From Oscarella lobularis (lineage: Eukaryota), in contig NC_089179.1 of NCBI RefSeq assembly GCF_947507565.1, positions 862,681 through 926,680 of the forward strand: a stretch of DNA of 64,000 nt, in the 5' to 3' direction. A program made the position numbers and the translations under genes. The notes under the pieces were generated by a model. It saw only the letters and a list, made by a program, of their open reading frames with translations, was not told where the DNA came from and made no database searches. Shown here piece after piece: positions 10,697 to 44,380 of the stretch; the first letter of the stretch is position 1; every line of letters starts with the position of its first letter.

Positions 10697-12555
10697 TTAG
10701 TGGTAGCTGCTATTGTATGAAACATGATGAGGCCAGCGAACTTGGTGTGCGGTACCCACTTGAGCGGTATCTCCGTAGCCACTTTGCCAAGCGTGCGTTG
10801 GCGGCGGCGTTGGAGGTGGCGGCGGGGATGAAGCGACGGGAGGCAGTATAGGCTGCTGCGATTCTGGAAACGGAAACGCTGTTCCCGTCGTGGGGGTTCC
10901 CATCGGTGTTTTACTACTCATTGGAGCGGCGTACTGCGACGGAGTAGGTGGCGGCGGCGGCGGCGGCGAAAATTGAGCGAACGATTTAGATAGCGGCGGT
11001 ATAAATCCGCCGCGGCCAGTACCGGAATTCCCTAATTGATTATCTGGCGTGTGAGGGTCGGGTAGTAGCGGCGGTCCTGAAGCATAACCAGGTGGAGTTT
11101 GTTTGTAGTAGATGCTCGGTGAGAGTCCTACAGGACGTAGTAGTTTCGGTACCAATTTCTGTGGGATTCGCTCCCTTTCCTTACCCGGCGTTGCTGGCGA
11201 TAGCATGTGCTGAAATAGTTGTCCTTCCTGGTACGGCGATGTCGCCGTTCCCGGCGGTTTGGCCAGCTCGTCGAGCTGCTTGAGTCGTCGCTCTTTCGAG
11301 CGACGATTCTGAAACCAAACCTGTATGACGCGCATCGTCAAACCGGTTGATTTCGCTAGTTTTTCTCGCGTCGGTCGCGACGGTTTGGGATTTTGATCGA
11401 ACGCCGTCTTGAGCATGTCCAACTGTTTGGCCTTGATCGTCGTTCGAGGTCCCCGTCGCCGTCCCTCCGACGACGGAGCCGACGTCGGCTCTTTCGTCGA
11501 CGTCGATCCGTCGTCGCAGTCTCGCTGCTCGTCACTTTTTTCGCTCGGTCCCGAATCGTCGACGACGGTCATTTCATCGTTCGGTGCCGTCGCGGTCTTT
11601 TCGTCGTCGGCTCCTTTCCCGTCGCCGCCGACGTCACCCCCCGCACCTAAAAGGAACACCGTTTTAGCTCTCGTCCACGTGCGCATAAGGCAGTTGGAAA
11701 TTTCGATGGCATTGTTTTATGCATTTGCTTATCGTAAATCAAATACACAAAGGAAGCTTTCTCCTCCTCTGCGGGTGGAACCCTGTTTACATAAGCCTCC
11801 GAATGGCTTGCCTACCTCAGAAAGGCAAGGTTGGCCACGTATTTCCCCATCAGGAAATCGATTGTTGGCGATGGGGAAAGTATGCGAAAACAATAGTGTA
11901 GGACGAAACGATATTGGCTTGCGGAGCGCGGCCTCTCTTTACTGTGTAAAGAGCTCGCGTGCGACTGTTAGCCCCCACGAAATATGCGCACACGTTGCGC
12001 TTCGATGTAAACGCGTGCACTCACCACCGGTGACGAACGTCGTGCTGCAGGAACAGAGCAGCTCGTAGTCGCCCAACGCCGCGTAGCGCTGACCGGTGTC
12101 GAGAAGGCGACCGCACGCCGTGCACTTGAAGCAGCCTACGTGGTACACACGCTTTCCGGCACGTCTCACGAGATCCTCCGGCGAAATGCCTTCGCGACAT
12201 CCAAAACACTTTGCACCGTACGTCCTACGAGACACAGAGTGACGAACGTCCATACACACACGTGGTTCGCATGTATAAAACGTTCAACAGGGGAAGCGAT
12301 GTTAGTGAGGGGCGACGGTCGATTAGACGGTGTAAACAAAACTTGGCCTTACACAAAGAACCGTCCCCTTAGAGACGCGTCGTCTAACCTGTAGAAATCG
12401 TTCTTGCAAAAGAACTTTCCGTCGCGCGAGAAGCAGCGCTCGGTGAGCGTCGCTCGGCACTGGACGCAGCGAATGCAAGTCCCGTGCCATACTTGCTCTT
12501 GTACGCGGTATACGAATCGGTCTGCGATGACCTGCGAGCATCCGGCACACTGCAT
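10697..12555 (-). CDS. LHX1: LIM-homeodomain transcription factor, Lhx1/Lim1 class (2 LIM domains plus homeodomain), 3 or more exons
   Basis: Exon 1 (12389-12555) [56 protein letters not shown] is LIM1. Exon 2 (about 12027-12224) [57 protein letters not shown] is LIM2. Exon 3 (10697-11647) contains [63 protein letters not shown], about 75% identical to the LHX1 homeodomain, then a Pro-rich tail and stop. Confidence 0.9.
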
Positions 12556-24291: not shown

Positions 24292-25480
24292 ATGCTGTGC
24301 ATGCGAATTCGCACCATCTCCGATTCGCTCATAAACGTCGACCACTCAATCTGTGCGTCATTCTCGGCTGAGGCGCAGAACGGAACGGACGGTCTGGTCC
24401 GCTCTCTCGCAACGGCGCCACGCTGCTACTTCCTTCGCGGGGCATCCTTCGCGGGGCAGCCGAGAAGAGGCTTACCGCCGCGAGGCGGGCCTCCAAAGCC
24501 AACGAACGACGGAGGGGACAGCGGAGCCACCGGTAAGTGAAGCTAGATTACGCGATTGTAATTATCCGAGCTAATTGTGCGCTTTCTCTCTTGCAGCGAA
24601 TCCCGTGCAGTCCTTTGCGAAGGACTGCGCCCTGACGAAGGAAGGAGGGCGCCGCGTGGCACGCGCGTCGGTAAGTCGCGTCGCGTCGCGTTTAGATCCA
24701 ATGGACTAATCGTGCTTTTTTTGTGCGTATAGGTCGTAGCGCTGTGCGGACGATCGACGCGCCACGGACACCGCTTCGAATTCGAAGACGAATGCGAATT
24801 CGAATTCGAATTCGAAGGCCAACGCGAATTCGAATTCGAAGACGAATGCGAATTCGAATTCGAATTCGAATGCGAATTCGAATTCGAATACGAATTCGAA
24901 TCCTTCGAATTCGATTCGAATTCGAAGGCGAATTCGAATTCGAAGGCGAATGCCAATTCGAAAGCGAATTCGAATTCGAAGGCGAATGCGAATTCGAATT
25001 CGAAGGCAAATGCCAATTCGAATTCGAAGGCGAATGCGAATTCGAATTCGAAGGCGAATGCCAATTCGAAGGCGAATGCCAATTCGAATCCGAATGCGAA
25101 TTCGAATTCGAAGGCGAATGCGAATTCGAATTGGAAGACGAATGCGAATTCGAATTCGAATTCGAAGGCGAATTCGAATTCGAATACAAATTCGAATCCT
25201 TCGAATTCAATTCGAATTCGAAGGCGAATTCGAATTCGAAGGCGAATGCCAATTCGAAAGCGAATTCGAATTCGAATTCGAAGGCGAATGCGAATTCAAA
25301 GGCAAACGCGAATTCGAAGGCGAATGCGAATTCGACAGTGAATACGAATTCGAATCCTTCGAATTCGATTAGAATTCGAAGGCGAATGCCAATTCGAATT
25401 CGAATGCGAATTCGAATTCGAATTCGAAGGCTAATGCCAATTCGAAGGCGAAATCGAATTCGAATTCGAAGGCGAATGTA
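24292..25480 (+). CDS. Candidate 3-exon transcript whose terminal exon is the GAATTC-hexamer array; predicted Phe/Glu-rich and Asn/Ser/Lys-rich repeat protein or a spliced satellite RNA
   Basis: Exon 1 about 24292-24532 (MLCMRIRTISDS...PPKPTNDGGDSGAT) ends at a strong donor cac cg|gtaagtga. Intron 24533-24596 ends ctctcttgcag. Exon 2 24597-24670 continues the same frame (A)NPVQSFAKDCALTKEGGRRVARAS, then donor tcg|gtaagtcg. Intron 24671-24732 ends gtatag. Exon 3 from 24733: VVALCGRSTRHGHRFEFEDECEFEFEFEGQREFEFEDECEFEFEFECEFEFEYEFESFEFDSNSKANSNSKANANSK..., which runs into the repeat. Confidence 0.3.
24772..25478. repeat. GAATTC-hexamer satellite (EcoRI-site repeat; degenerate 24-36 nt higher-order units gaattc-gaattc-gaaggc-gaatgc)
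   Basis: Direct read: about 115 tandem hexamers, mostly gaattc with gaaggc, gaatgc, gaatcc, caattc variants. An internal about 320-bp duplication is present (24890-24990 is similar to 25190-25290). Confidence 0.9.
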
Positions 25481-25494
25481 AGTAGTAGATAGTC

Positions 25495-28400
25495 AGAACA
25501 GTTGGCCAGCCCCTTGTAATTTCACTGTAATTTATTACACTAGAGAACAGTTGGCCAGTCCCTTGTAATTTTTCTGTAATTTATTACACGAGAGAACAGT
25601 TGGCCAGTTCCTTGTAATTTCATTGTAATTTATTACACTAGAGAACAGTTGGCCAGTCCCTTGTAATTTCACTGTAATTTATTACAGGAAAGAACAGTTG
25701 GCCAGTCCCTTGTAATTTCACTGTAATTTATTACAGGAGAGAACAGTTGGCCGGTCCCTAGTAATTTTCCTGTATTGTATTACAGAAAAGAACAGTTGGC
25801 CAGTCTCTTGTAATTTCACTGTAATTTATTACAGGAGAGAACAGTTGGCCAGTCCCTTGTAAATTCCTGTAATTTATTACAGGAGAGAACAGTGGGCCAG
25901 TCCCTTGTAATTTCACTGTAATTTATTAGAGGAAAGAACAGTTGGCCATTACTTTGTAATTACACTGTAATTTATTACAGGAGAGAACAGTTGGCCAGTT
26001 CCTAGTAATTTTCGTACAGGAAAGAACAATTGGCTAGTCCCTTGTAATTTCACTGTAATCTATTACAGGAAAGAACAGTTGGCCAGTCCCTTGTAATTTC
26101 ACTGTAATTTATTACACTAGAGAACAGTTGGCCAGTCCCTTGTAGTTTTCCTGTAATTTATTAAGAGAACAGTTGGCCAGTCCTTTGTAATTTTTCTGTA
26201 ATTTATTACAGGAGAGAACAGTTGGCCAGTCTCTTGTAATTTCCTGTAATTTATTACAGGAGAGAACAGTTGGCCAGTCCCTTGTAATTTTCCTGTAATT
26301 TATTACAGGAGAGAACAGTTGGCCAGTCCCTTGTAATTTCCTGTAATTTATTACAGGAGAGAACAGTTGGCCAGTCCCTTGTAATTTTCCTGTAATTTAT
26401 TACAGGAGAGAACAGTGGGCCAGTCCCTTGTAATTTTCCTGTAATTTATTACAGGAGAGAACAGTGGGCCAGTCCCTTGTAATTTTCCTGTAATTTATTA
26501 CAGGAGAGAACTGTTGGCCAGTCCCTTGTAATTTTTCCTTAATTTATTACAGGAGAGAACAGTTTGCCAATCTCTTTTAATTTCCTGTAATTTATTACAG
26601 GAGAGAACAGTTGGCCAGTTCCTTGTAATTTTTCTTTAATTTACTACAGGAAAGAACAATTGGCCAGTCCCTTGTAATTTTTCTGTAATTTATTACAGGA
26701 AAGAACAGTTGGCCAGTCCCTTGTAATTTCATTGTAATTTATTACACTAGAGAACAGTTGGCCAGTCCCTTGTAATTTCACTGTAATTTATTACAAGAGA
26801 GAACAGTGGGCCAGTCCCTTGTAATTTTCCTGTAATTTATTACAGGAGAGAACAGTGGGCCAGTTCCTTGTAATTTCACTGTAATTTATTACAGGAAAGA
26901 ACAGTTTGCCATTCCTTTGTAATTTCACTGTAATTTATTACACGAGAGAACAGTTGGCCAGTCCCTAGTAATTTTCGTACAGGAAAGAACAATTGGCTAG
27001 TCCCTTGTAATTTCACTGTAATTTATTACACTAGTGAACAGTTGGCCAGTTCCTTGTAATTTTTTGTAATTTATTACAAGAGAGAACAGTGGGCCAGTCC
27101 CTTGTAATTTTCCTGTAATTTATTACAGGAGAGAACAGTTGGCCAGTCCCTTGTAATTTTTCTGTAATTTATTACAGGAAAGAACAGTTGGCCAGTCCTT
27201 TGTAATTTCATTGTAATTTATTACACTAGAGAACAGTTGGCCAGTCCCTTGTAATTTCACTGTAATTTATTACAGGAAAGAACAGTTGGCCATTCCCTTG
27301 TAATTTCACTGTAATTTATTACAGGAGAGAACAGTTGGCCAGTCCCTTTTAATTTCCTGTAATTTATTACAGGAGAGAACAGTGGGCCAGTCCCTTGTAA
27401 TTTTCCTGTAATTTATTACAGGAGAGAACAGTGGGCCAGTCCCTTGTAATTTTTCTGTAATTTATTACAGGAAAGAACAGTTGGCCAGTCCCTTGTAATT
27501 TCACTGTAATTTATTACACTAGAGAACAGTTGGCCAGTCCCTTTTAATTTCCTGTAATTTATTACAGGAGAGAACAGTTGGCCAGTCCCTTGTAATTTTC
27601 CTGTAATTTATTACAGGAGAGAACAGTTGGCCATTCTTTTGTAATTTCACTGTAATTTATTACACTAGAGAACAATTCGCCAGTTCCTTGTAATTTTCGT
27701 ACAGGAAAGAACAATTGGCCAGTTCCTTGTAATTTCACTGTAATTTATTACAGGAAAGAACAGTTGGCCAGTCCCTTGTAATTTCACTGTAATTTATTAC
27801 ACTAGAGAACAGTTGGCCAGTCCCTTGTAGTTTTCCTGTAATTTATTAAGAGAACAGTTGGCCAGTCCTTTGTAATTTTTCTGTAATTTATTACAGGAGA
27901 GAACAGTTGGCCAGTCTCTTGTAATTTCCTGTAATTTATTACAGGAGAGAACAGTTGGCCAGTCCCTTGTAATTTTCCTGTAATTTATTACAGGAGAGAA
28001 CAGTTGGCCAGTCCCTTGTAATTTCCTGTAATTTATTACAGGAGAGAACAGTTGGCCAGTCCCTTGTAATTTTCCTGTAATTTATTACAGGAGAGAACAG
28101 TGGGCCAGTCCCTTGTAATTTTCCTGTAATTTATTACAGGAGAGAACAGTGGGCCAGTCCCTTGTAATTTTCCTGTAATTTATTACAGGAGAGAACTGTT
28201 GGCCAGTCCCTTGTAATTTTTCCTTAATTTATTACAGGAGAGAACAGTTTGCCAATCTCTTTTAATTTCCTGTAATTTATTACAGGAGAGAACAGTTGGC
28301 CAGTTCCTTGTAATTTTTCTTTAATTTACTACAGGAAAGAACAATTGGCCAGTCCCTTGTAATTTTTCTGTAATTTATTACAGGAAAGAACAGTTGGCCA

Positions 28401-31400
28401 GTCCCTTGTAATTTCATTGTAATTTATTACACTAGAGAACAGTTGGCCAGTCCCTTGTAATTTCACTGTAATTTATTACAAGAGAGAACAGTGGGCCAGT
28501 CCCTTGTAATTTTCCTGTAATTTATTACAGGAGAGAACAGTGGGCCAGTTCCTTGTAATTTCACTGTAATTTATTACAGGAAAGAACAGTTTGCCATTCC
28601 TTTGTAATTTCACTGTAATTTATTACACGAGAGAACAGTTGGCCAGTCCCTAGTAATTTTCGTACAGGAAAGAACAATTGGCTAGTCCCTTGTAATTTCA
28701 CTGTAATTTATTACACTAGTGAACAGTTGGCCAGTTCCTTGTAATTTTTTGTAATTTATTACAAGAGAGAACAGTGGGCCAGTCCCTTGTAATTTTCCTG
28801 TAATTTATTACAGGAGAGAACTGTTGGCCAGTCCCTTGTAATTTTTCCTTAATTTATTACAGGAGAGAACAGTTTGCCAATCTCTTTTAATTTCCTGTAA
28901 TTTATTACAGGAGAGAACAGTTGGCCAGTTCCTTGTAATTTTTCTTTAATTTACTACAGGAAAGAACAATTGGCCAGTCCCTTGTAATTTTTCTGTAATT
29001 TATTACAGGAAAGAACAGTTGGCCAGTCCCTTGTAATTTCATTGTAATTTATTACACTAGAGAACAGTTGGCCAGTCCCTTGTAATTTCACTGTAATTTA
29101 TTACAAGAGAGAACAGTGGGCCAGTCCCTTGTAATTTTCCTGTAATTTATTACAGGAGAGAACAGTGGGCCAGTTCCTTGTAATTTCACTGTAATTTATT
29201 ACAGGAAAGAACAGTTTGCCATTCCTTTGTAATTTCACTGTAATTTATTACACGAGAGAACAGTTGGCCAGTCCCTAGTAATTTTCGTACAGGAAAGAAC
29301 AATTGGCTAGTCCCTTGTAATTTCACTGTAATTTATTACACTAGTGAACAGTTGGCCAGTTCCTTGTAATTTTTTGTAATTTATTACAAGAGAGAACAGT
29401 GGGCCAGTCCCTTGTAATTTTCCTGTAATTTATTACAGGAGAGAACAGTTGGCCAGTCCCTTGTAATTTTTCTGTAATTTATTACAGGAAAGAACAGTTG
29501 GCCAGTCCTTTGTAATTTCATTGTAATTTATTACACTAGAGAACAGTTGGCCAGTCCCTTGTAATTTCACTGTAATTTATTACAGGAAAGAACAGTTGGC
29601 CATTCCCTTGTAATTTCACTGTAATTTATTACAGGAGAGAACAGTTGGCCAGTCCCTTGTAATTTCACTGTAATTTATTACAGGAGAGAACAGTTGGCCA
29701 GTCCCTTTTAATTTCCTGTAATTTATTACAGGAGAGAACAGTGGGCCAGTCCCTTGTAATTTTCCTGTAATTTATTACAGGAGAGAACAGTTGGCCAGTC
29801 CCTTGTAATTTTTCTGTAATTTATTACAGGAAAGAACAGTTGGCCAGTCCTTTGTAATTTCATTGTAATTTATTACACTAGAGAACAGTTGGCCAGTCCC
29901 TTGTAATTTCACTGTAATTTATTACACTAGAGAACAGTTGGCCAGTCCCTTTTAATTTCCTGTAATTTATTACAGGAGAGAACAGTTGGCCAGTCCCTTG
30001 TAATTTTCCTGTAATTTATTACAGGAGAGAACAGTTGGCCATTCTTTTGTAATTTCACTGTAATTTATTACACTAGAGAACAATTCGCCAGTTCCTTGTA
30101 ATTTTCGTACAGGAAAGAACAATTGGCCAGTTCCTTGTAATTTCACTGTAATTTATTACAGGAAAGAACAGTTGGCCAGTCCCTTGTAATTTCACTGTAA
30201 TTTATTACACTAGAGAACAGTTGGCCAGTCCCTTGTAATTTTCCTGTAATTTATTAAGAGAACAGTTGGCCAGTCCTTTGTAATTTTTGTGTAATTTATT
30301 ACAGGAAAGAACAGTTGGCCATTCCCTTGTAATTTCACTGTAATTTATTACAGGAGAGAACAGTTGGCCATTCTTTTGTAATTTCACTGTAATTTATTAC
30401 AGGAGAGAACAGTTGGCCAGTCCCTAGTAATTTTCCTGTATTGTATTACAGAAAAGAACAGTTGGCCAGTCTCTTGTAATTTCACTGTAATTTATTACAG
30501 GAGAGAACAGTTGGCCAGTCCCTTGTAAATTCCTGTACTTTATTACAGGAGAGAACAGTTGGCCAGTCCCTTGTTATTTCACTGTAATTTATTACGCTAG
30601 AGAACAGTTGGCCAGTCCTTTGTAATTTTTCGGTAATTTATTACAGGAGAGAACAGTTGGCCAATTCCTTTTAATTTCCTGTAATTTATTACAGGAGAGA
30701 ACAGTTGGCCAGTTTCTTGTAATTTTCCTGTAATTTTTACAGGAGAGAACAGTTGGCCAGTCCCTTGTAATTTCACTGTAATTCATTACAGGAGAGAACA
30801 GTTGGCCAGTCCCTTGTAATTTTTCTGTAGTTTATTACAGGAAAGAACAATTGGCCAGTCCGTTGTAATTTGACTGTAATTTATTACAGGAAAGAACAGT
30901 TGGCCAGTCCCTTGTAATTTTACTGTAATTTATTACACTAGTGAACAGTTGGCTAGTTCCTTATAATTTTCCTGTGATTTATTAAAGGAGAGAACAGTGG
31001 GCCAGTCCCTTGTAGTTTTCCTGTAATTTATTACAGGAGAGAACAGTGGGCCAGTCCCTTGTAATTTTCCTGTAATTTATTACAGGAGAGAACTGTTGGC
31101 CAGTCCCTTGTAATTTTTCCTTAATTTATTACAGGAGAGAACAGTTGGCCAATTTCTTTTAATTTCTTGTAATTTATTACAGGAGAGAACAGTTGGCCAG
31201 TTCGTTGTAATTTTTCTTTAATTTACTACAGGAAAGAACAATTGGCCAGTCCCTTGTAATTTTTCTGTAATTTATTACAGGAAAGAACAGTTGGCCAGTC
31301 CCTTGTAATTTCATTGTAATTTATTACACTAGAGAACAGTTGGCCAGTCCCTTGTAATTTCACTGTAATTTATTACAAGAGAGAACAGTGGGCCAGTCCC

Positions 31401-31748
31401 TTGTAATTTTCCTGTAATTTATTACAGGAGAGAACAGTTGGCCAATCCTTTTTAATTTCCTGTAATTTATTACAGGAGAGAACAGTTGGCCAGTTCCTTG
31501 TAATTTTCCTGTAATTTATTACAGGAGAGAACAGTTAGCCTGTCCCTTCTAATTTCACTGTAATTTATTACACTAGAGAACAGTTGGCCAGTCCCTTGTA
31601 ATTTTCCTGTAATTTATTAAGAGAACAGTTGGCCAGTCCTTTGTAATTTTTCTGTGATTTATTACAGGAGAGAACAGTTGGCCAGTCTCTTGTAGTTTCC
31701 TGTAATTTATTACAGGAGAGAACAGTTGGCCAGTCCCTTGTAATTGTT
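25495..31748. repeat. Sat A: 49-bp AT-rich tandem satellite, about 128 monomers, with an about 1.69 kb higher-order repeat
   Basis: Monomer ACAGTTGGCCAGTCCCTTGTAATTTCACTGTAATTTATTACAGGAGAGA. Variants are cactg, cattg, ttcctg, tttctg, and caggag, caggaa, cactag, cacgag. Diagnostic variant monomers (cagtttgccaatctcttttaatttcctg; ccctagtaattttcgtacaggaaagaacaattgg) recur at 26560/28250/28870 and 26960/28650/29280. This indicates a higher-order period of about 1690 bp plus a partial duplication of about 620 bp. Confidence 0.92.
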
Positions 31749-32050
31749 CTGTATGATTGAGGAATAAAAGAATACTTGATCATCGATGATAATATTCATC
31801 GTCATCACCATCAAGTACCCTTCTCTTTTTTCCTTCACGTTGCACTCTGCTTTATATTTTACTGTGACACCTGCAATTTCATGGAAGACAAACCGAGACA
31901 TTTTTCCAAACTAAAACTTGTTACTTGTGTGCCGATTTTATTGCTGCATGCATAATTTTTTATAGGCTAGTATCCGTGTGTAAATGTTTTTTAGTGTATC
32001 TATGGAAACGTCCATCGCCTGGTAAATAGTAGATAGTATAGTAAATGGTA
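31749..32050. repeat. Junction sequence J, copy 1: about 300-bp unique segment immediately distal to a Sat A array, duplicated at 44036-44336
   Basis: tgtatgattgaggaataaaagaatacttgatcatcgatgataatattcatcgtcatcaccatcaagtaccc...gtaaatggta is about 99% identical to 44036-44336 (2-3 mismatches). Both copies directly follow a terminal Sat A monomer ending cc(c/t)ttgtaatt(g/a)ttctgtatgattgagg. Confidence 0.9.
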
Positions 32051-32488
32051 ATAATTTTTAGATTGCAATCACGTTGAAAATGCATACGGGATTGCTATTT
32101 GTTGCTTTTCTTTTCTGTACAGTAGCGTTAGGCTCGTGGAAAACGACGAATGCAAGAGCTAGCGTTGCTTGTGGATCGAAGAGTTATCCTAAACTCTACT
32201 GAAAGTGGCTGGAAGCGCGCTACAGCGGACGTCGTTTGTTTTTGACGAACGAATATGCCCAACTGACGCTCGCACGACACCGAGAAGAGCGAAACGAGGA
32301 CCTCGACGACTGGATGGTGGCAAAAAGCGAGTGAAAGCGAACGTACGTTAGATTTGAGGTTCGAATGAAAAAAAATCGCTTTGCACTCACATGCAATCAC
32401 GAAACGAACGTCCCAAATACCATGCAGTGTTCCTCTACGACCATAGGCCTACCTTACCACTGGCCATCCTTTTCTCGCGTCAGCGTAT

Positions 32489-32690
32489 GAAAAAAAAACG
32501 CTGACGCTGTTCGATCGCGAGATCGACGCTTTTTCTCGAAAGATTAGCGTAAAAACAAGAAAAAAGCGTCGACGCTGCTCGATCGCGAGATATCGACGCT
32601 TTTTCTTGAACGAAGTACCTAAAAAACGAGAAAAAACGCTGTGCTCTTCGATTCCGCGATCGGCGCTTTTCTACCTAAAAAAATCAAAAG
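32489..32690. repeat. Three tandem copies of an about 65-70-nt element, each an A-run / GC-rich hairpin / T-run
   Basis: Copy 2 is aaaaagcgtcga-cgctgctcgatcgcgagata-tcgacgcttttt, a perfect 12-nt inverted repeat with a 19-20-nt loop. Copies 1 and 3 are diverged. Each is followed by cttgaacgaagtacctaaaaaacga-like tails. The function (foldback repeat, MITE end, or small-RNA or terminator-like hairpins) is unknown. Confidence 0.6.
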
Positions 32691-32924
32691 ATTAGTCTCT
32701 GTTCAATCTGTCCGCGTACGTACCTTGTAGTCCTGCGTTCGTATTGGCGTAATCCAGGCTACACCGCGTGGAGGTTCGAACGCATGGTACCCGAAAAATT
32801 TTTGAGAGCGAGCCGTGGCATCATAGGCTCAACCACGACGGTGCGGCCTAGGATCAGAACGGCTCTCCCACACCGTCCCCCCGACCTCGTTGCACCGCGA
32901 CCCATGGGGCCATAGTCCTTCGCT

Positions 32925-35900
32925 TGCCGGCGGAGTACGTACACCGCTTGCCGGAATATATACACCGTCTGCCGGCGGAGTACGTACACCGCTTGCCGGA
33001 ATATATACACCGCCTGCCGGCGGAGTACGTACACCGCTTACCGAAATATATACACCGCCTGCCGGCGGAGTACGTACACCGCCTGCCGGAATATATACAC
33101 CGCCTGCCGGAATATATACACCGCCTGCCGGCGGAGTACGTACACCGCTTACCGGAATATATACACCGCCTGCCGGCGGAGTACGTACACCGCTTGCCGG
33201 AATATATACACCGCCTGCCGGCGGAGTACGTACACCGCTTGCCGGAATATATACACCGCCTGCCGGCGGAGTACGTACACCGCCTGCCGGAATATATACA
33301 CCGCCTGCCGGCGGAGTACGTACACCGCTTACCGAAATATATACACCGCCTGCCGGCGGAGTACGTACACCGCTTGCCGGAATATATACACCGCCTGCCG
33401 GCGGAATACGTACACCGCTTGCCGGAATATATACACCGCCTACCGGCGGAGTACGTACACCGCCTGCCGAAATATATACACCGCCTGCCGGAATATATAC
33501 ACCGCCTACCTGCGGAGTACGTACACCGCTTACCGGAATATATACACCGCCTGCCGGCGGAGTACGTACACCGCTTGCCGGAATATATACACCGCCTGCC
33601 GGCGGGGTACGTACACCGCTTGCCGGAATATATACACCGCCTGCCGGCGGAGTACGTACACCGCTTACCGAAACATATACACCGCCTGCCGGCGGAGTAC
33701 GTACACCGCTTGCCGGAATATATACACCGCCTGCCGGCGGAGTACGTACACCGCTTACCGAAATATATACACCGCCTGCCGGCGGAGTACGTACACCGCT
33801 TGCCGAAATATATACACCGCCTGCCGGCGGAGTACGTACACCGCTTACCGAAACATATACACCGCCTGCCGGCGGAGTACGTACACCGCTTGCCGGAATA
33901 TATACACCGCCTGCCGGCGGAGTACGTACACCGCTTGCCGGAATATATACACCGCCTGCCGGCGGAGTACGTACACCGCTTACCGAAATATATACACCGC
34001 CTGCCGGCGGAGTACGTACACCGCTTGCCGGAATATATACACCGCCTGCCGGCGGAGTACGTACACCGCTTACCGAAATATATACACCGCCTGCCGGCGG
34101 AGTACGTACACCGCTTGCCGGAATATATACACCGCCTGCCGGCGGAGTACGTACACCGCTTACCGAAATATATACACCGCCTGCCGGCGGAGTACGTACA
34201 CCGCTTGCCGGAATATATACACCGCCTGCCGGCGGAGTACGTACACCGCTTACCGAAATATATACACCGCTGGCCGGCGGAGTACGTACACCGCTTGCCG
34301 GAATATATACACCGCCTGCCGGCGGAGTACGTACACCGCCTACCGAAATATATACACCGCCTGCCGGCGGAGTACGTACACCGCTTGCCGGAATATATAC
34401 ACCGCCTGCCGGCGGAGTACGTACACCGCTTGCCGGAATATATACACCGCCTGCAGGCGGAGTACGTACACCGCTTACCGAAATATATACACCGCCTGCC
34501 GGCGGAGTACGTACACCGCCAGCCGAAATATATACACCGTCTGCCGGCGGAGTACGTACACCGCTTGCCGAAATATATACACCGCCGGCCGGCGGAGTAC
34601 GTACACCGCCAGCCGAAATATATACACCGCCGGCCGGCGGAGTACGTACACCGCCTGCCGAAATATATACACCGTCTGCCGGCGGAGTACGTACACCGCT
34701 TACCGGAATATATACACCGCCTGCCGGCGGAGTACGTACACCGCTTACCGAAATATATACACCGCCTGCCGGCGGAGTACGTACACCGCTTGCCGGAATA
34801 TATACACCGCCTGCCGGTGGAGTACGTACACCGCTTACCGAAATATATACACCGCCTGCCGGCGGAGTACGTACACCGCTTGCCGGAATATATACACCGC
34901 CTGCAGGCGGAGTACGTACACCGCTTACCGAAATATATACACCGCCGGCCGGCGGAGTACGTACACCGCTTACCGAAATATATACACCGCCGGCCGGCGG
35001 AGTACGTACGCCGCCTGCCGAAATATATACACCGTCTGCCGGCGGAGTACGTACACCGCTTGCCGGAATATATACACCGCCTGCCGGCGGAGTACGTACA
35101 CCGCTTGCCGGAATATATACACCGCCTGCCGGCGGGGTACGTACACCGCTTGCCGGAATATATACACCGCCTGCCGGCGGAGTGCGTACACCGCTTACCG
35201 AAATATATACACCGCCCTCCGGCGGAGTACGTACACCGCTTGCCGGAATATATACACCGCCCTCCGGCGGAGTACGTACACCGCTTGCCGGAATATATAC
35301 ACCGCCTGCCGGTGGAGTACGTACACCGCTTACCGAAATATATACACCGCCTGCCGGCGGAGTACGTACACCGCTTGCCGGAATATATACACCGCCTGCC
35401 GGCGGAGTGCGTACACCGCTTACCGAAATATATACACCGCCCTCCGGCGGAGTACGTACACCGCTTGCCGGAATATATACACCGCCTGCCGGCGGAGTAC
35501 GTACACCGCTTGCCGAAATATATACACCGCCTGCCGGCGGAGTACGTACACCGCTTGCCGGAATATATACACCGCCTGCCGGCGCAGTACGTACACCGCT
35601 TGCCGGAATATATACACCGCCTGCCGGCGGAGTACGTACACCGCTTGCCGGAATATATACACCGCCTGCCGGAATAAATACACCGCCTGCCGGAATATAT
35701 ACACCGCCTGCCGGCGGAGTACGTACACCGCTTGCCGGAATATATACACCGCCTGCCGGCGGAGTACGTACACCGCCTGCCGGAATATATACACCGCCTG
35801 CCGGAATATATACACCGCCTGCCTGCGGAGTACGTACACCGCTTACCGGAATATATACACCGCCTGCCGGCGGAGTACGTACACCGCATGCCGGAATATA

Positions 35901-36959
35901 TACACCGCCTGCCGGCGGAGTACGTACACCGCTTGCCGGAATATATACACCGCCTGCCGGCGGAGTACGTACACCGCTTGCTGGAATATATACACCGCCT
36001 GCCGGCGGAGTACGTACACCGCTTACCGAAATATATACACCGCCTGCCGGCGGAGTACGTACACCGCTTGCCGGAATATATACACCGCCTGCCGGCGGAG
36101 TACGTACACCGCTTGCCGGAATATATACACCGCCTGCCGGCGGAGTACGTACACCGCTTACCGAAATATACACACCGCCTGCCGGCGGAGTACGTACACC
36201 GCTTACCGAAATATATACACCGCCTGCCGGCGGAGTACGTACACCGCTTGCCGGAATATATACACCGCCTGCCGGCGGAGTACGTACACCGCTTGCCGGA
36301 ATATATACACCGCCTGCCGGAATATATACACCGCCTGCCGGAATATATACACCGCCTGCCGGAATATATACACCGCCTGCCGGCGGAGTACGTACACCGC
36401 TTACCGAAATATATACACCGCCTGCCGGAATATATACACCGCCTGCCGGAATATATACACTGCCTGCCGGAATATATACACCGCCTGCCGGCGGAGTACG
36501 TACACCGCCTGCCGGAATATATACACCGCCTGCCGGCGGAGTACGTACACCGCTTACCGGAATATATACACCGCCTGCCGGAATATATACACCGCCTGCC
36601 GGCGGAGTACGTACACCGCCTGCCGGAATATATACACCGCCTGCCGGAATATATACACCGCCTGCCTGCGGAGTACGTACACCGCTTACCGGAATATATA
36701 CACCGCCTGCCGGCGGAGTACGTACACCGCCTGCCGAAATATATACACCGTCTGCCGGCGGAGTACGTACACCGCTTACCGGAATATATACACCGCCTGC
36801 CGGTGGAGTACGTACACCGCTTACCGGAATATATACACCGCCTGCCGGCGGAGTACGTACACCGCTTGCCGGAATATATACACCGCCTGCCGGCGGAGTA
36901 CGTACACCGCTTACCGAAATATATACACCGCCTGCCGGAATATATACACCGCCTGCTCT
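32925..36959. repeat. Sat B array 1: 45-bp CpG-rich tandem satellite, about 90 units, built from alternating 24-nt and 21-nt sub-repeats
   Basis: Unit GCCGGCGGAGTACGTACACCGCTT + GCCGGAATATATACACCGCCT. Embedded palindromes GTACGTAC, ATATAT, GCCGGC. Runs of the 21-nt sub-repeat alone, for example 36301-36380. Recurrent variants: cttgccggaatat / cttaccgaaatat, cctgcc / ccggcc / ccctcc, gcgcag, ggggta. Confidence 0.93.
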
Positions 36960-37309
36960 AATTTATTACACTAGTGAACAGTTCGCCAGTCCCTTGTAAT
37001 TTTCCTGTAATTTATTACAGGAGAGAACAGTGGGCCAGTCTCTTGTAATTTTCCTGTAATTTATTACAGGAGAGAACAGTTGGCCAGTCCCTTGTAATTT
37101 TCCTGTAATTTATTACAGGAGAGAACAGTTGGCCAGTTCCTTGTAATTTTTCTTTAATTTACTACAGGAAAGAACAATTGGCCATTCCCTTGTAATTTTT
37201 CTTTAATTTATTACAGGAAAGAACAGTTGGCCAGTCCCTTGTAATTTCATTGTAATTTATTACACTAGAGAACAGTTGGCCAGTCCCTTGTAATTTCACC
37301 GCTTGTAAT
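36960..37309. repeat. Sat A block (about 7 monomers) inserted between Sat B arrays
   Basis: Begins ...caccgcctgctc|taatttattacactagtgaacagttcgccagtccc and ends ...cccttgtaatttcaccgcttgtaatttcaccgctt|gccggaatat. The same pair of junctions recurs at 41880 and 42235. Confidence 0.9.
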
Positions 37310-40300
37310 TTCACCGCTTGCCGGAATATATACACCGCCTGCTGGCGGAGTACGTACACCGCCTGCCGGAATATATACACCGCCTGCCGGAATATATACA
37401 CCGCCTGCCGGCGGAGTACGTACACCGCTTGCCGGAATATATACACCGCCGGCCGGCGGAGTACGTACACCGCCTGCCGAAATATATACACCGCCTGCCG
37501 GCGGAGTACGTACACCGCTTGCCGGAATATATACACCGCCTGCCGGCGGAGAACGTACACCGCTTACCGAAATATATACACCGCCTGCCGGCGGAGTACG
37601 TACACCGCTTGCCGGAATATATACACCGCCGGCCGGCGGAGTACGTACACCGCCTGCCGGAATATATACACCGCCTGCCGGAATATATACACCGCCTGCC
37701 GGCGGAGTACGTACACCGCTTACCGAAATATATACACCGCCTGCCGGAATATATACACCGCCTGCCGGAATATATACACCGCCTGCCGGAATATATACAC
37801 CGCCTGCCGGAATATATACACCGCCTGCCGGCGGAGTACGTACACCGCTTGCCGGAATATATACACCGCCTGCCGGCGGGGTACGTACACCGCTTGCCGG
37901 AATATATACACCGCCTGCCGGCGGAGTGCGTACACCGCTTACCGAAATATATACACCGCCCTCCGGCGGAGTACGTACACCGCTTGCCGGAATATATACA
38001 CCGCCGGCCGGCGGAGTACGTACACCGCTTACCGAAATATATACACCGCCGGCCGGCGGAGTACGTACACCGCCTGCCGAAATATATACACCGCCTGCCG
38101 GCGGAGTACGTACACCGCTTGCCGGAATATATACACCGCCTGCCGGCGGAGAACGTACACCGCTTACCGAAATATATACACCGCCTGCCGGCGGAGTACG
38201 TACACCGCTTGCCGGAATATATACACCGCCGGCCGGCGGAGTACGTACACCGCCTGCCGGAATATATACACCGCCTGCCGGAATATATACACCGCCTGCC
38301 GGCGGAGTACGTACACCGCTTACCGAAATATATACACCGCCTGCCGGAATATATACACCGCCTGCCGGAATATATACACCGCCTGCCGGAATATATACAC
38401 CGCCTGCCGGAATATATACACCGCCTGCCGGCGGAGTACGTACACCGCTTACCGAAATATATACACCGCCTGCCGGCGGAGTACGTACACCGCTTGCCGG
38501 AATATATACACCGCCTGCCGGCGGAGTACGTACACCGCTTGCCGGAATATATACACCGCCTGCCGGCGGAGTACGTACACCGCTTGCCGGAATATATACA
38601 CCGCCTGCCGGCGGAGTACGTACACCGCTTGCCGGAATATATACACCGCCTGCCGGCGGAGTACGTACACCGCTTGCCGGAATATATACACCGCCTGCCG
38701 GCGGAGTACGTACACCGCTTGCCGGAATATATACACCGCCTGCCGGCGGAGTACGTACACCGCTTGCCGGAATATATACACCGCCTGCCGGCGGAGTACG
38801 TACACCGCTTACCGAAATATATACACCGCCTGCCGGCGGAGTACGTACACCGCTTGCCGGAATATATACACCGCCGGCCGGCGGAGTACGTACACCGCCC
38901 TCCGGAATATATACACCGCCTGCCGGAATATATACACCGCCTGCCGGCGGAGTACGTACACCGCTTACCGAAATATATACACCGCCTGCCGGAATATATA
39001 CACCGCCTGCCGGAATATATACACCGCCTGCCGGAATATATACACCGCCTGCCGGAATATATACACCGCCTGCCGGAATATATACACCGCCTGCCGGCGG
39101 AGTACGTACACCGCTTACCGAAATATATACACCGCCTGCCGGCGGAGTACGTACACCGCTTGCCGGAATATATACACCGCCTGCCGGCGGAGTACGTACA
39201 CCGCTTGCCGGAATATATACACCGCCTGCCGGCGGAGTACGTACACCGCTTGCCGGAATATATACACCGCCTGCCGGCGGAGTACGTACACCGCTTGCCG
39301 GAATATATACACCGCCTGCCGGCGGAGTACGTACACCGCTTGCCGGAATATATACACCGCCTGCCGGCGGAGTACGTACACCGCTTGCCGGAATATATAC
39401 ACCGCCTGCCGGCGGAGTACGTACACCGCTTGCCGGAATATATACACCGCCTGCCGGCGGAGTACGTACACCGCTTGCCGGAATATATACACCGCCGGCC
39501 GGCGGAGTACGTACACCGCCCTCCGGAATATATACACCGCCTGCCGGAATATATACACCGCCTGCCGGCGGAGTACGTACACCGCTTACCGAAATATATA
39601 CACCGCCTGCCGGAATATATACACCGCCTGCCGGAATATATACACCGCCTGCCGGAATATATACACCGCCTGCCGGCGGAGTACGTACACCGCCTGCCGG
39701 AATATATACACCGCCTGCCGGCGGAGTACGTACACCGCTTACCGGAATATATACACCGCCTGCCGGAATATATACACCGCCTGCCGGAATGTATACACCG
39801 CCTGCCGGCGGAGTACGTACACCGCCTGCCGGAATATATACACCGCCTGCCGGAATATATACACCGCCTGCCTGCGGAGTACGTACACCGCTTACCGGAA
39901 TATATACACCGCCTGCCGGCGGAGTACGTACACCGCTTGCCGGAATATATACACCGCCTGCAGGCGGAGTACGTACACCGCTTACCGAAATATATACACC
40001 GCCTGCCGGCGGAGTACGTACACCGCTTGCCGGAATATATACACCGCCTGCAGGCGGAGTACGTACACCGCTTACCGAAATATATACACCGCCGGCCGGC
40101 GGAGTACGTACACCGCTTACCGAAATATATACACCGCCGGCCGGCGGAGTACGTACACCGCCTGCCGAAATATATACACCGTCTGCCGGCGGAGTACGTA
40201 CACCGCTTGCCGGAATATATACACCGCCTGCCGGCGGGGTACGTACACCGCTTGCCGGAATATATACACCGCCTGCCGGCGGAGTGCGTACACCGCTTAC

Positions 40301-41879
40301 CGAAATATATACACCGCCCTCCGGCGGAGTACGTACACCGCTTGCCGGAATATATACACCGCCGGCCGGCGGAGTACGTACACCGCTTACCGAAATATAT
40401 ACACCGCCGGCCGGCGGAGTACGTACACCGCTTGCCGGAATATATACACCGCCTGCCGGCGGGGTACGTACACCGCTTGCCGGAATATATACACCGCCTG
40501 CCGGCGGAGTGCGTACACCGCTTACCGAAATATATACACCGCCCTCCGGCGGAGTACGTACACCGCTTGCCGGAATATATACACCGCCTGCCGGAATATA
40601 TACACCGCCTGCCGGCGGAGTACGTACACCGCTTGCCGGAATATATACACCGCCTGCCGGCGGAGTACGTACACCGCTTACCGAAATATATACACCGCCG
40701 GCCGGCGGAGTACGTACACCGCTTACCGAAATATATACACCGCCTGCCGGCGGAGTACGTACACCGCTTGCCGGAATATATACACCGCCTGCCGGCGGGG
40801 TACGTACACCGCTTGCCGGAATATATACACCGCCGGCCGGCGGAGTACGTACACCGCCTGCCGGAATATATACACCGCCTGCCGGAATATATACACCGCC
40901 TGCCGGCGGAGTACGTACACCGCTTACCGAAATATATACACCGCCTGCCGGAATATATACACCGCCTGCCGGAATATATACACCGCCTGCCGGAATATAT
41001 ACACCGCCTGCCGGCGGAGTACGTACACCGCTTGCCGGAATATATACACCGCCTGCCGGCGGAGTACGTACACCGCCTGCCGGAATATATACACCGCCTG
41101 CCGGAATATATACACCGCCTGCCTGCGGAGTACGTACACCGCTTACCGGAATATATACACCGCCTGCCGGCGGAGTACGTACACCGCTTGCCGGAATATA
41201 TACACCGCCTGCAGGCGGAGTACGTACACCGCTTGCCGGAATATATACACCGCCTGCCGGCGGAGTACGTACACCGCTTACCGAAATATATACACCGCCG
41301 GCCGGCGGAGTACGTACACCGCTTACCGAAATATATACACCGCCTGCCGGCGGAGTACGTACACCGCTTGCCGGAATATATACACCGCCTGCCGGCGGGG
41401 TACGTACACCGCTTGCCGGAATATATACACCGCCGGCCGGCGGAGTACGTACACCGCCTGCCGGAATATATACACCGCCTGCCGGAATATATACACCGCC
41501 TGCCGGCGGAGTACGTACACCGCTTACCGAAATATATACACCGCCTGCCGGAATATATACACCGCCTGCCGGAATATATACAGCGCCTGCCGGAATATAT
41601 ACACCGCCTGCCGGCGGAGTACGTACACCGCTTGCCGGAATATATACACCGCCTGCCGGCGGAGTACGTACACCGCCTGCCGGAATATATACACCGCCTG
41701 CCGGAATATATACACCGCCTGCCTGCGGAGTACGTACACCGCTTACCGGAATATATACACCGCCTGCCGGCGGAGTACGTACACCGCATGCCGGAATATA
41801 TACGCCGCCGGCCGGCGGAGTACGTACACCGCTTACCGAAATATATACACCGCCTGCCGGAATATATACACCGCCTGCT
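37310..41879. repeat. Sat B array 2 (about 101 units)
   Basis: Same 45-bp unit as 32925-36959. It contains internally duplicated sub-blocks: 40660-41270 is nearly identical to 41260-41870, and 37330-37700 to 38030-38400. 21-nt sub-repeat runs at 37741-37840, 38961-39100, 39590-39660, 40940-41010 and 41540-41610. Confidence 0.93.
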
Positions 41880-42234
41880 CTAATTTATTACACTAGTGAA
41901 CAGTTCGCCAGTCCCTTGTAATTTTCCTGTAATTTATTACAGGAGAGAACAGTGGGCCAGTCCCTTGTAATTTTCCTGTAATTTATTACAGGAGAGAACA
42001 GTTGGCCAGTCCCTTGTAATTTTCCTGTAATTTATTACAGGAGAGAACGGTTGGCCAGTTCCTTGTAATTTTTCTTTAATTTACTACAGGAAAGAACAAT
42101 TGGCCATTCCCTTGTAATTTTTCTTTAATTTATTACAGGAAAGAACAGTTGGCCAGTCCCTTGTAATTTCATTGTAATTTATTACACTAGAGAACAGTTG
42201 GCCAGTCCCTTGTAATTTCACCGCTTGTAATTTC
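41880..42234. repeat. Sat A block (about 7 monomers), second copy of the 36960-37309 block
   Basis: Near-identical to 36960-37309, including both Sat B junction sequences. Confidence 0.9.
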
Positions 42235-42439
42235 ACCGCTTGCCGGAATATATACACCGCCTGCCGGCGGAGTACGTACACCGCCTGCCGGAATATATAC
42301 ACCGCCTGCCGGAATATATACACCGCCTGCCGGCGGAGTACGTACACCGCTTGCCGGAATATATACACCGCCTGCCGGTGGAGTACGTACACCGCTTACC
42401 GAAATATATACACCGCCTGCCGGAATATATACACCGCCT
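42235..42439. repeat. Sat B mini-array (about 4.5 units)
   Basis: gccggaatatatacaccgcctgccggcggagtacgtacaccgc... ends with caccgcctactc|taatttattacactagtgaacagttcgcc. Confidence 0.9.
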
Positions 42440-44035
42440 ACTCTAATTTATTACACTAGTGAACAGTTCGCCAGTCCCTTGTAATTTTCCTGTAATTTAT
42501 TACAGGAGAGAACAGTGGGCCAGTCCCTTGTAATTTTCCTGTAATTTATTACAGGAGTGAACAGTTGGCCAGTCCCTTGTAATTTTCCTGTAATTTATTA
42601 CAGGAGAGAACAGTTGGCCAGTCCCTTGTAATTTTTCCTTAATTTATTACAGGAGAGAACAGTTGGCCAGTCCTTTTTAATTTCCTGTAATTTATTACAG
42701 GAGAGAACAGTTGGCCAGTTCCTTGTAATTTTTCTTTAGTTTACTACAGGAAAGAACAATTGGTCATTCCCTTGTAATTTTTCTTTAATTTATTACAGGA
42801 AAGAACAGTTGGCCAGTCCCTTGTAATTTCATTGTAATTTATTACACTAGAGAACAGTTGGCCAGTCCCTTGTAATTTCACTGTAATTTATTACAGGAAA
42901 GAACAGTTGGCCATTTCCTTGTAATTTCACTGTAATTTATTACAGGAGAGAACAGTTGTCCATTCTTTTGTAATTTCACTGTAATTTATTACAGGAGAGA
43001 ACAGTTGGCCAGTCCCTTGTAATTTTCGTACAGGAAAGAACAATTGGCCAGTCCCTTGTAATTTCACTGTAATTTATTACACTAGTGAACAGTTGGCCAG
43101 TCCCTTGCAATTTTCCTGTAATTTATTACAGGAGAGAACAGTGGGCCAGTCCCTTGTAAGTTTCCTGTAATTTATTACAGGAGAGAACAGTTGGCCAGTC
43201 TCTTGTAATTTCATTGTAATTTATTACACTAGAGAACAGTTGGCCAGTCCCTTGTAATTTCCTGTAATTTATTACAGGAGAGAACAGTTGGCCAGTCCCT
43301 TGTAATTTTTCTGTAATTTATTACAGGAGAGAACAGTTGGCCAATCCCTTTTAATTTCCTGTAATTTATTACAGGAGAGAACAGTTGGCCAGTTCCTTGT
43401 AATTTCACTGTAATTTATTATACTAGAGAACAGTTGGCCAGTCCCTTGTAATTTTCCTGTAATTTATTAAGAGAACAGTTGGCCAGTCCTTTGTAATTTT
43501 TCTGTAATTTGTTACAGGAGAGAACAGTTGGCCAGTCCCTTGTAATTTCCTGTAATTTATTACAGGAGAGAACAGTTGGCCAGTCTTTTGTAATTTTCCT
43601 GTAATTTATTACAGGAGAGAACAGTTGGCCAGTCCCTTGTTATTTCACTGTAATTTTTTACACTAGAGAACAGTTGGCCAGTCCTTTGTAATTTTTCTGT
43701 AATTTATTACAGGAGAGAACAGTTGGCCAATCCCTTTTAATTTCCTGTAATTTATTACAGGAGAGAACAGTTGGCCAGTTCCTTGTAATTTTCCTGTAAT
43801 TTATTACAGGAGAGAACAGTTAGCCTGTCCCTTGTAATTTCACTGTAATTTATTACACTAGAGAACAGTTGGCCGGTCCCTTCTAATTTTCCTGTAATTT
43901 ATTAAGAGAACAGTTGGCCAGTCCTTTGTAATTTTTCTGTGATTTATTACAGGAGAGAACAGTTGGCCAGTCCCTTGTAATTTCCTGTAATTTATTACAG
44001 GAGAGAACAGTTGGCCAGTCCTTTGTAATTATTCT
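42440..44035. repeat. Sat A array (about 33 monomers) ending at junction copy J'
   Basis: Same 49-bp monomer family. The terminal monomer is cctttgtaattattctgtatgattgagg, as at 31730-31750. Confidence 0.92.
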
Positions 44036-44336
44036 GTATGATTGAGGAATAGAAGAATACTTGATCATCGATGATAATATTCATCGTCATCACCATCAAG
44101 TACCCTTCTCTTTTTTCCTTCACGTTGCACCCTGCTTTATATTTTACTGTGACACCTGCAATTTCATGGAAGACAAACCGAGACATTTTTCCAAACTAAA
44201 ACTTGTTACTTGTGTGCCGATTTTATTGCTGCATGCATAATTTTTTATAGGCTAGTATCCGTGTGTAAATGTTTTTTAGTGTATCTATGGAAACGTCCAT
44301 CGCCTGGTAAATAGTAGATAGTATAGTAAATGGTAA
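44036..44336. repeat. Junction sequence J', copy 2 (duplicate of 31749-32050), directly upstream of the purple acid phosphatase gene
   Basis: See 31749-32050. Divergence from copy 1 begins after gtaaatggtaa (44327). Confidence 0.9.
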
Positions 44337-44380
44337 ATACGCATCTCTCAGTCACGTGTCTGCCACTGGTCAGGGGAGCC

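Follow-up and report, generated by a model that had tools for sequence, protein, structure and literature searches.

The DNA analyzed here, hereafter the window, is a stretch of 64,000 nucleotides from the sponge Oscarella lobularis (NC_089179.1, positions 862,681 to 926,680), which an exact look-up placed at about 2.852-2.916 Mb of ptg000012l, a contig of 3.81 Mb with a hifiasm-style name in ENA analysis ERZ18545485. A block of three unrelated families of tandem repeats lies within it, between two genes on the same strand. With a probability of roughly 0.7, we regard this block as a real, non-coding and hypervariable cluster of compound minisatellite or satellite DNA that fills the spacer between the two genes. 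Positions given below are those of the window unless otherwise stated.

Tandem Repeats Finder (TRF) assigned positions 24775-44038 to a hexamer, a 49-bp family (Sat A) and a 45-bp family (Sat B), which occur back to back and scored between 651 and 9,158 across the arrays (Table 1). About 130, 7, 7 and 33 monomers of Sat A were counted in four successive arrays, together with 393 subunits of Sat B. The defined units are thus repeated head to tail, as is diagnostic of tandem-repeat DNA. This repetition is far beyond chance, since the other 44 kb of the window contain no tandem array longer than about 60 bp; nor do they contain a stray copy of Sat A, of Sat B, or of two non-repeat elements of the block, J, which terminates both of the large Sat A arrays, and the spacer U. 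A preliminary description of the same DNA had drawn a map of the three families and their order, and TRF reproduced it almost to the base.

Table 1. Features of the repeat block and of its duplicated elements, in window coordinates
Feature	Position	Strand	Remarks
Hexamer array (TTCGAA/GAATTC)	24775-25470	n/a	TRF: 115 copies, 76% match, imperfect
16-bp motif, copy 1, GTAAGTAGTAGATAGT	25478-25493	+	abuts the first base of Sat A
Sat A array 1	25495-31745	n/a	TRF: 49-bp AT-rich monomer, 129.6 copies, 87% match, 6.25 kb
641-bp duplication, left copy	31411-32051	+	last 7 Sat A monomers and J1 (31749-32051)
16-bp motif, copies 2 and 3	32022-32037; 44307-44322		in J1 and in J2, each 14 bp from the end of its J
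U	32052-32920	n/a	unique non-repeat spacer, 869 bp
Sat B block 1	32921-36958	n/a	about 4.0 kb, alternating 24- and 21-bp subunits
Sat A island 1	36959-37299 (TRF 36959-37296, 338 bp)	n/a	7 monomers
Sat B block 2	37312-41880	n/a	about 4.6 kb, internal order unlike block 1
Sat A island 2	41881-42221 (TRF 41881-42218, 338 bp)	n/a	99.4% identical to island 1
Sat B block 3	42234-42443 (TRF to 42439)	n/a	8 subunits, about 0.2 kb; third Sat B-to-Sat A junction at its end
Sat A array 4	42444-44038	n/a	33 copies, 1.6 kb; first monomer is the junction-variant monomer of the islands
641-bp duplication, right copy	43696-44336	+	7 monomers and J2 (44036-44336)

Both of the genes that bound the spacer are on the + strand. 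The upstream one ends in the hexamer tract, and the downstream one codes for a purple-acid-phosphatase-like protein. Between them, an interval of 18.9 kb is devoid of any credible gene; it is delimited by a called open reading frame (ORF) that ends about 15 bp from Sat A and by an ATG at 44381, 45 bp past J2, with which the signal peptide of the phosphatase begins. The gene caller placed no genes in Sat A, J1 or U, and every frame of Sat A contains stops, with no ORF reaching 200 amino acids (aa). Rfam returned no match at gathering thresholds over the whole window, which also holds no tRNA gene; when J and U were searched permissively, a snoRNA-like chance match below threshold (21 bits vs 50 required) was the only one, and no family came near its gathering score.

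Sat A has a GC content of 36% and has grown by irregular, recent block duplications. When the monomers of array 1 were clustered into types, their order read C.CBQREF.K[BCGEAEAAAJMDHBCAFNKOADBCBIADBCALS][BCGEAEAAAJMDHBCAFNKO][AJMDHBCAFNKO]..., with irregular blocks that are 12-33 monomers long. The same array contains perfect direct repeats, of 1,076 bp at an offset of 1,685, of 894 bp at an offset of 2,310 and of 682 bp at an offset of 625. The identity between monomers was 0.887-0.901 over all of the 14 monomer lags tested (1 to 34), and the periods of 147, 195 and 244 bp called by TRF do not reflect a regular higher-order repeat. Such a repeat was considered for the locus and rejected, because identity is flat across the lags, the monomer blocks are irregular and the Sat B blocks are not collinear. 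Mean identity is the same within and between the Sat A arrays (0.89), and arrays 1 and 4 draw on one variant pool.

Sat B has a GC content of 58% and a heterodimeric unit, in which a subunit of 24 bp, CACCGCCTGCCGGCGGAGTACGTA, is paired with one of 21 bp, CACCGC(C/T)TGCCGGAATATATA. Every one of its 393 subunits is exactly 21 or 24 bp long, and there are stretches of consecutive 21-mers as well as patchy local duplications. The longest perfect internal repeat, of 484 bp at an offset of 666, lies in block 2. TRF called Sat B overall from 32921 to 41860, broken by two Sat A islands. Blocks 1 and 2 have in common only about 1 kb around each island (36500-37501 vs 41404-42423, 94.9% identity). That the two blocks are a simple tandem duplicate of 4.9 kb was also considered, and rejected because they are not collinear beyond this 1 kb. 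Sat B shows no sign of coding constraint in any of the six frames: non-synonymous variants made up 18-26 of 33 sites in each of them, against an expected proportion of 0.68-0.72 (minimum p = 0.08).

Three further contigs of the ERZ18545485 assembly, atg000551l, ptg000390l and atg002321l, cover parts of the locus. Over 3 kb of the left flank, the first of these (46.6 kb) matches the window with 100% identity, and the hexamer, Sat A, J1, U and Sat B follow as they do there. Its array 1, however, measures only 4.03 kb vs 6.25 kb in the window, and a global alignment revealed two clean gaps, at window positions 28140-28764 (625 bp) and 29793-31390 (1,598 bp). In the window, these missing 625 bp belong to a perfect 625-bp tandem duplication, of which they make up exactly one copy. 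Over the 4.4 kb of Sat A, J and U there were 2 mismatches, with U being identical, and the first 2.3 kb of Sat B exceed those of the window by one 45-bp unit and show 0 mismatches; in total, 2 mismatches were found in the approximately 9.8 kb compared (3.0 kb of flank, 4.4 kb of Sat A-J-U and 2.3 kb of Sat B). The second contig, ptg000390l (58.6 kb), is a diverged haplotig that is 99.66% identical over 18.3 kb and has the same hexamer and left joint. Its array 1 is at least 7.77 kb long, a lower bound in that Sat A continues past the part compared and 7.6 kb of contig lie further on. The third, atg002321l (19.7 kb), begins inside Sat A and runs through about 640 bp of it into J2 and the phosphatase gene; when the printed sequences were compared by eye, a few bases were found to differ between it and the window, with J2 accounting for 3.

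Array 1 therefore occurs in three lengths among three contigs, 4.03, 6.25 and at least 7.77 kb, which amounts to length polymorphism in whole units. The copy number of Sat A and Sat B shifts in whole-block steps far faster than bases are substituted. The left part of the locus is present in this single assembly in three versions, the primary one, one that is near-identical with block insertions or deletions (indels), and a haplotig diverged by 0.34%. Three versions exceed a simple diploid, which suggests somatic mosaicism, chimerism or pooled individuals in the sample. The locus had been flagged beforehand as a trouble spot for assembly, and rightly so, with one contig beginning in Sat A and three contigs giving three lengths of array 1. 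The same description had allowed that a single J might underlie the two seen. J1 followed by U and Sat B is found again in atg000551l, and Sat A followed by J2 and the phosphatase gene in atg002321l; as both contexts are present on separate contigs, the two J copies are not an artefact.

The interleaving of Sat A and Sat B is recorded in the junctions between them. An exact string search located the Sat B-to-Sat A junction at 36947, 41869 and 42432, and all three copies are alike over 45 bp upstream and 70 bp downstream, bar one site that is G or A. At the joint itself, the sequence is ...CACCGCCTG-CTC-TAATTT..., which allows for no more than 4 nucleotides (nt) of microhomology and has 3 extra bases. 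The opposite junction, from Sat A to Sat B, is found at 37285-37324 and 42207-42246 and includes a 15-nt stutter (37287-37320 in the first copy; TRF, 2.3 copies, 100%). It reads ...CTTGTAATTTCAC / CG CTTG / TAATTTCAC / CGCTTGCCGG..., with a first crossing from Sat A to Sat B at CAC, a return to Sat A at CTTG and a second crossing at CAC. This junction looks like the trace of serial template switching at microhomologies rather than of homologous exchange. Islands 1 and 2 differ at 2 of 341 bases. Block 2 begins like the 0.2-kb block 3 (a-A-b-b-A-a) and closes like block 1 (...AbbHdA...cb).

J is also duplicated. Positions 31740-32051 match 44025-44336 with 99.0% identity, and there is no third match in the window. 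J1 and J2 differ at three positions, about as many as separate two haplotig versions of J2. When array 4 and J2 were aligned in register with the end of array 1 and J1, identity was 0.82-0.92 up to 31410 and 0.97-1.0 from there to 32051, so that the duplicate comprises 641 bp, seven monomers plus J, and is 98.3% identical overall. A segmental duplication of a whole Sat A array was rejected, identity outside these 641 bp being at the background level of 0.82-0.92.

These results modify the preliminary description in part. The three and two junction copies, the latter with their 15-nt microduplication, and the approximately 300-bp J present twice at about 99% identity all held. The proposal of a composite Sat A-Sat B unit amplified by unequal exchange fits insofar as the interleaving does derive from a duplicated junction module, with islands that are 99.4% identical. 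There is no regular unit, however, only two to three copies of a module of about 1 kb set in independently scrambled Sat B, and homologous exchange would explain only the later amplification, the new joints themselves being of the microhomology or template-switch type. Likewise, a segment of Sat A with its flank is indeed duplicated, but its extent is 0.64 kb and not an array.

A parsimonious course of events can be proposed from the junctions. Sat B and Sat A would first have been joined non-homologously, with microhomology of 4 nt or less. A replication template switch, leading from the seventh Sat A monomer back to Sat B about 0.2 kb upstream by way of CAC, CTTG and CAC, would then have left the 15-nt stutter, a small tandem duplication and the Sat A-to-Sat B junction. 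One unequal homologous exchange in Sat B may subsequently have recopied the module of junction and island, giving three junctions of the one type and two of the other; it would also have made block 2 start like block 3 and end like block 1. Continuing unequal exchange between sister chromatids or alleles, together with slippage, would have enlarged and scrambled the arrays, and the 641-bp piece may have been duplicated, or else held similar by gene conversion. The hexamer and Sat B are strongly self-complementary as single strands and Sat A is not (DNA fold z of -7.0, -4.4 and -1.7, respectively), and hairpins formed by the former two probably promote fork stalling and rearrangements. No cellular function needs to be invoked for the cluster, and none is likely beyond incidental effects on J2, the putative promoter of the neighbouring phosphatase gene.

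Several considerations weigh against this account. The absence of a function is an assumption, and the order of events is an argument from parsimony. The interleaved islands are seen in the primary contig only, and look-ups of genes downstream of the block did not lead to atg000551l; all contigs stem from one read set and one assembler, and some of the length variants could be assembly alternatives. Finally, slippage or unequal exchange leaves unexplained a 16-bp direct repeat that brackets the modules of Sat A and J, which hints at an origin by insertion.

This repeat, GTAA(G/A)TAGTAGATAGT, is central to another view of how the locus arose, namely that a mobile or extrachromosomal element made up of a Sat A array and J inserted into a once short spacer, with the 16-bp repeat as its target-site-like duplication, and that the second copy of Sat A and J came from re-insertion or recombination. 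Exactly three copies of the motif GTAARTAGTAGATAGT are present in the 64 kb, where 0.05 would be expected. One marks the left edge of array 1, and each J has one that lies 14 bp from its end; the left copy is kept at the same place in the diverged haplotig (12355-12370 of the fetched sequence). Such a bracketing of the Sat A-J modules resembles a target-site duplication and is compatible with an insertion-type origin. Both large Sat A arrays terminate in J, and the 12.3-kb interval from 32052 to 44336 lies between the 641-bp direct repeats, the pattern expected of a circle integrating by homology. An empty site would read ...GAAT-GTAARTAGTAGATAGT-ATAGTAAATGGTAA..., but no empty allele was found, all three of the three contigs concerned carrying the joint of hexamer, motif and Sat A. 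Likewise, no terminal inverted repeat or poly-A tail was seen at the edges of the block, nor a hairpin terminus or a transposon protein, and nothing with a Pfam domain was called within it. Moreover, the left edge of array 4 is a junction with Sat B and not the motif, and the window holds only two J copies, which a local duplication can explain. We consider this origin unlikely, if better placed than the possibilities that follow; it concerns only how the locus began and can coexist with later local expansion.

A bolder possibility is that the block is a regional centromere or a site of heterochromatin nucleation, a short satellite island that would bind CenH3 in a compact genome. The sponge chromosome, of about 4 Mb or more, would then have a sequence-defined centromere consisting of a 20-kb mosaic of dyad-rich satellites in hyper-turnover between active genes. 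The block is the sole sizeable array of tandem repeats and the largest gene-free interval within the 64 kb, it lies inside a 3.8-Mb contig, its repeats are rich in dyad symmetry and its satellites turn over fast. Our literature searches on sponge satellites and centromeres gave no sponge centromere sequence and so nothing that would contradict the idea. On the other hand, it consists of three unrelated short arrays, not of one homogenised family, and has no regular higher-order repeat. Genes come within 5-45 bp of the arrays, among them an apparently intact gene start 45 bp from J2. No further Sat A or Sat B was found in the 44 kb of flanks, in the JGI metagenomes or in IMG/VR; exact scans with the cores of both families gave 0 matches in the latter two collections, which exclude this genome, and a literature search for the monomer strings retrieved an unrelated primer only. 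The assembler also crossed the block in one haplotype, which argues against a repeat common to many chromosomes. Nor is there CpG decay. The ratio of observed to expected CpG was 1.2-1.3 in the genic flanks, 1.6 in Sat B and 0.06-0.08 in Sat A, which is nearly CpG-free by composition; because Sat B and the flanks are not depleted, there is no mutational footprint of methylated heterochromatin, and CpG decay as a sign of such chromatin was rejected. A centromere or a heterochromatin-nucleating site at this place is, we think, improbable.

Repeat-induced mis-joining or duplication in the primary contig might instead have produced the two islands, or the array lengths. This would be in keeping with the disagreement among contigs of the same assembly over the size of array 1, with atg002321l starting within Sat A, with Sat A exceeding the compared part of ptg000390l, with the perfect internal repeats of 0.7-1.1 kb in the window and with the restriction of the islands to one contig. 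A duplicated assembly path would, however, yield identical copies, and the islands differ at the two bases mentioned and have unlike Sat B flanks, while a G-to-A change sets the third junction apart. Both contexts of J recur on other contigs, and each array, at 6.3 kb or less, is below the length of a typical HiFi read (a read type assumed from the hifiasm-style contig names). An artefact of this kind thus has little to recommend it as the source of the structure.

That Sat B is a giant repetitive coding exon (e.g., ...PPAGGVRTPPAGIYT...), driven by a duplicated promoter in J1 and with a signal-peptide exon in U, is least probable and was rejected as unsupported: the subunit lengths are all divisible by 3, several frames contain ORFs of 900-1,500 aa, and a 40-aa ORF with a hydrophobic N-terminus lies 29 bp past J1 as the phosphatase signal peptide lies past J2, but the consensus lacks stop trinucleotides on either strand, so that all six frames are open mechanically (only 1-4% of possible mutations make a stop), amino-acid-changing variants are under-represented in no frame, Sat A islands with stops break the arrays, and the 40-aa ORF closes in a stop with no evident splice donor ahead of it. 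A search with a 1,331-aa ORF of Sat B gave 0 homologues, an uninformative outcome given that the ORF itself is absent from the protein collection used; a 1,258-aa chimera of 14 ORFs from around the satellites likewise retrieved nothing there, for the same reason. The public gene call lists 'proteins' of 1,114 aa (32829-36173, - strand), 1,331 aa (37926-41921, + strand) and 132 aa (37162-37560, - strand) here, which are spurious, being no more than frames left open across Sat B and one Sat A island, and which a filter aware of repeats should discard.

The hexamer, with 115 copies and a called ORF of 245 aa (24744-25481, + strand), is of the same size in all three contigs that include it, the diverged ptg000390l among them. 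Frame translation and the gene table place it within this ORF, in frame with the spliced upstream exons. Its stability is much greater than that of Sat A, and it may encode a tail of low complexity. A good splice acceptor precedes the hexamer in the region 24736-25489, in frame with two upstream exons (...FEFEDECEFEFE..., NSNSKAN..., then RIRRR...), and GTAAGT follows immediately 3' of the array.

No second copy of U was found in the window. Between 32492 and 32660, U has three units of 68-70 bp, each with a palindrome composed of an A-run, GCGTCGACGC...TCGACGC and a T-run; these units look like degenerate hairpin-forming elements. The 40-aa ORF (32080-32202; MHTGLLFVAFLFCTVALGSW...) has a start that, by eye, is hydrophobic and signal-peptide-like, and its position after J1 parallels that of the phosphatase signal peptide (MASFLLAFFVLAISPSLLLA) after J2. 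J might be a promoter, in which case its duplicated copy would now be directed at U and Sat B.

The DNA flanking the block is gene-dense and includes homeobox, clathrin heavy chain and Sec5/EXOC2 genes in addition to the Metallophos/fn3_PAP phosphatase. A single-exon gene of 579 aa in the window codes for an acyloxyacyl hydrolase whose nearest named relative, with 59% identity, is from the homoscleromorph sponge Corticium candelabrum. A 2.2-kb Logan sequence (SRR25569769) contains an 89-aa clathrin exon identical to the one in the window, with different, shorter introns, and probably comes from a related sponge species. We rejected the idea that it is a transcript; the sequence is genomic and offers no evidence of expression.

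Among known systems, the cluster resembles the hypervariable minisatellites, or variable number tandem repeats, such as human MS32 and CEB1, in its units of 45-49 bp, its arrays of 0.2-8 kb, its one GC-rich family and its gene-rich setting. Wide variation in length by whole or multiple units between identical flanks is another shared trait. It departs from them in that three unrelated families are fused and interleaved, and in that variation consists mostly of block indels of 0.6-1.6 kb. Euchromatic satellites adjacent to genes, such as Drosophila 1.688 and Tribolium Cast, likewise form short arrays among active genes, with conserved junctions and rapid turnover. Those families occupy hundreds of scattered sites, and pericentromeric blocks of them are also frequent, whereas here one locus is seen within the 64-kb window. 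As in the higher-order repeats of primate alpha-satellite, monomers are about 87-89% alike and growth is by multi-monomer duplication and unequal exchange; in contrast to alpha-satellite, there is no regular period, the arrays are of kilobase and not megabase size, three families are mixed and genes adjoin them.

As for the joints, fork stalling and template switching (FoSTeS) or microhomology-mediated break-induced replication (MMBIR) offers a close parallel: the Sat A-to-Sat B junction combines serial microhomologies of 3-4 nt with a templated re-copy of 15 nt, and the opposite one has at most 4 nt and the 3 extra bases. Here, however, the switches would have taken place between adjacent satellite arrays, with the product then amplified by homologous exchange, a course that we infer from sequence only. 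The satellites of bivalves associated with Helitrons or miniature inverted-repeat transposable elements are comparable in that the same non-repeat flank, J, follows each array and a short direct repeat brackets the module. They differ in that the two copies here are local and explicable by local duplication, and in that no transposon termini or hairpins were seen.

Were the block a centromere, its importance would be far greater, no sponge centromere sequence having turned up in our searches. As a cluster of compound satellites, it is a genome feature of an ordinary kind that happens to be unusually well resolved, and its junctions may record how the interleaving came about, by template switching and then by unequal exchange. 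It also serves as a warning for assembly and annotation, the gene caller having made 'proteins' of 1,100-1,300 aa from Sat B. The contigs of one sample show changes in blocks of repeats with essentially no base substitutions, and in this sponge the locus could conveniently be used to trace clonality, chimerism or somatic mosaicism.

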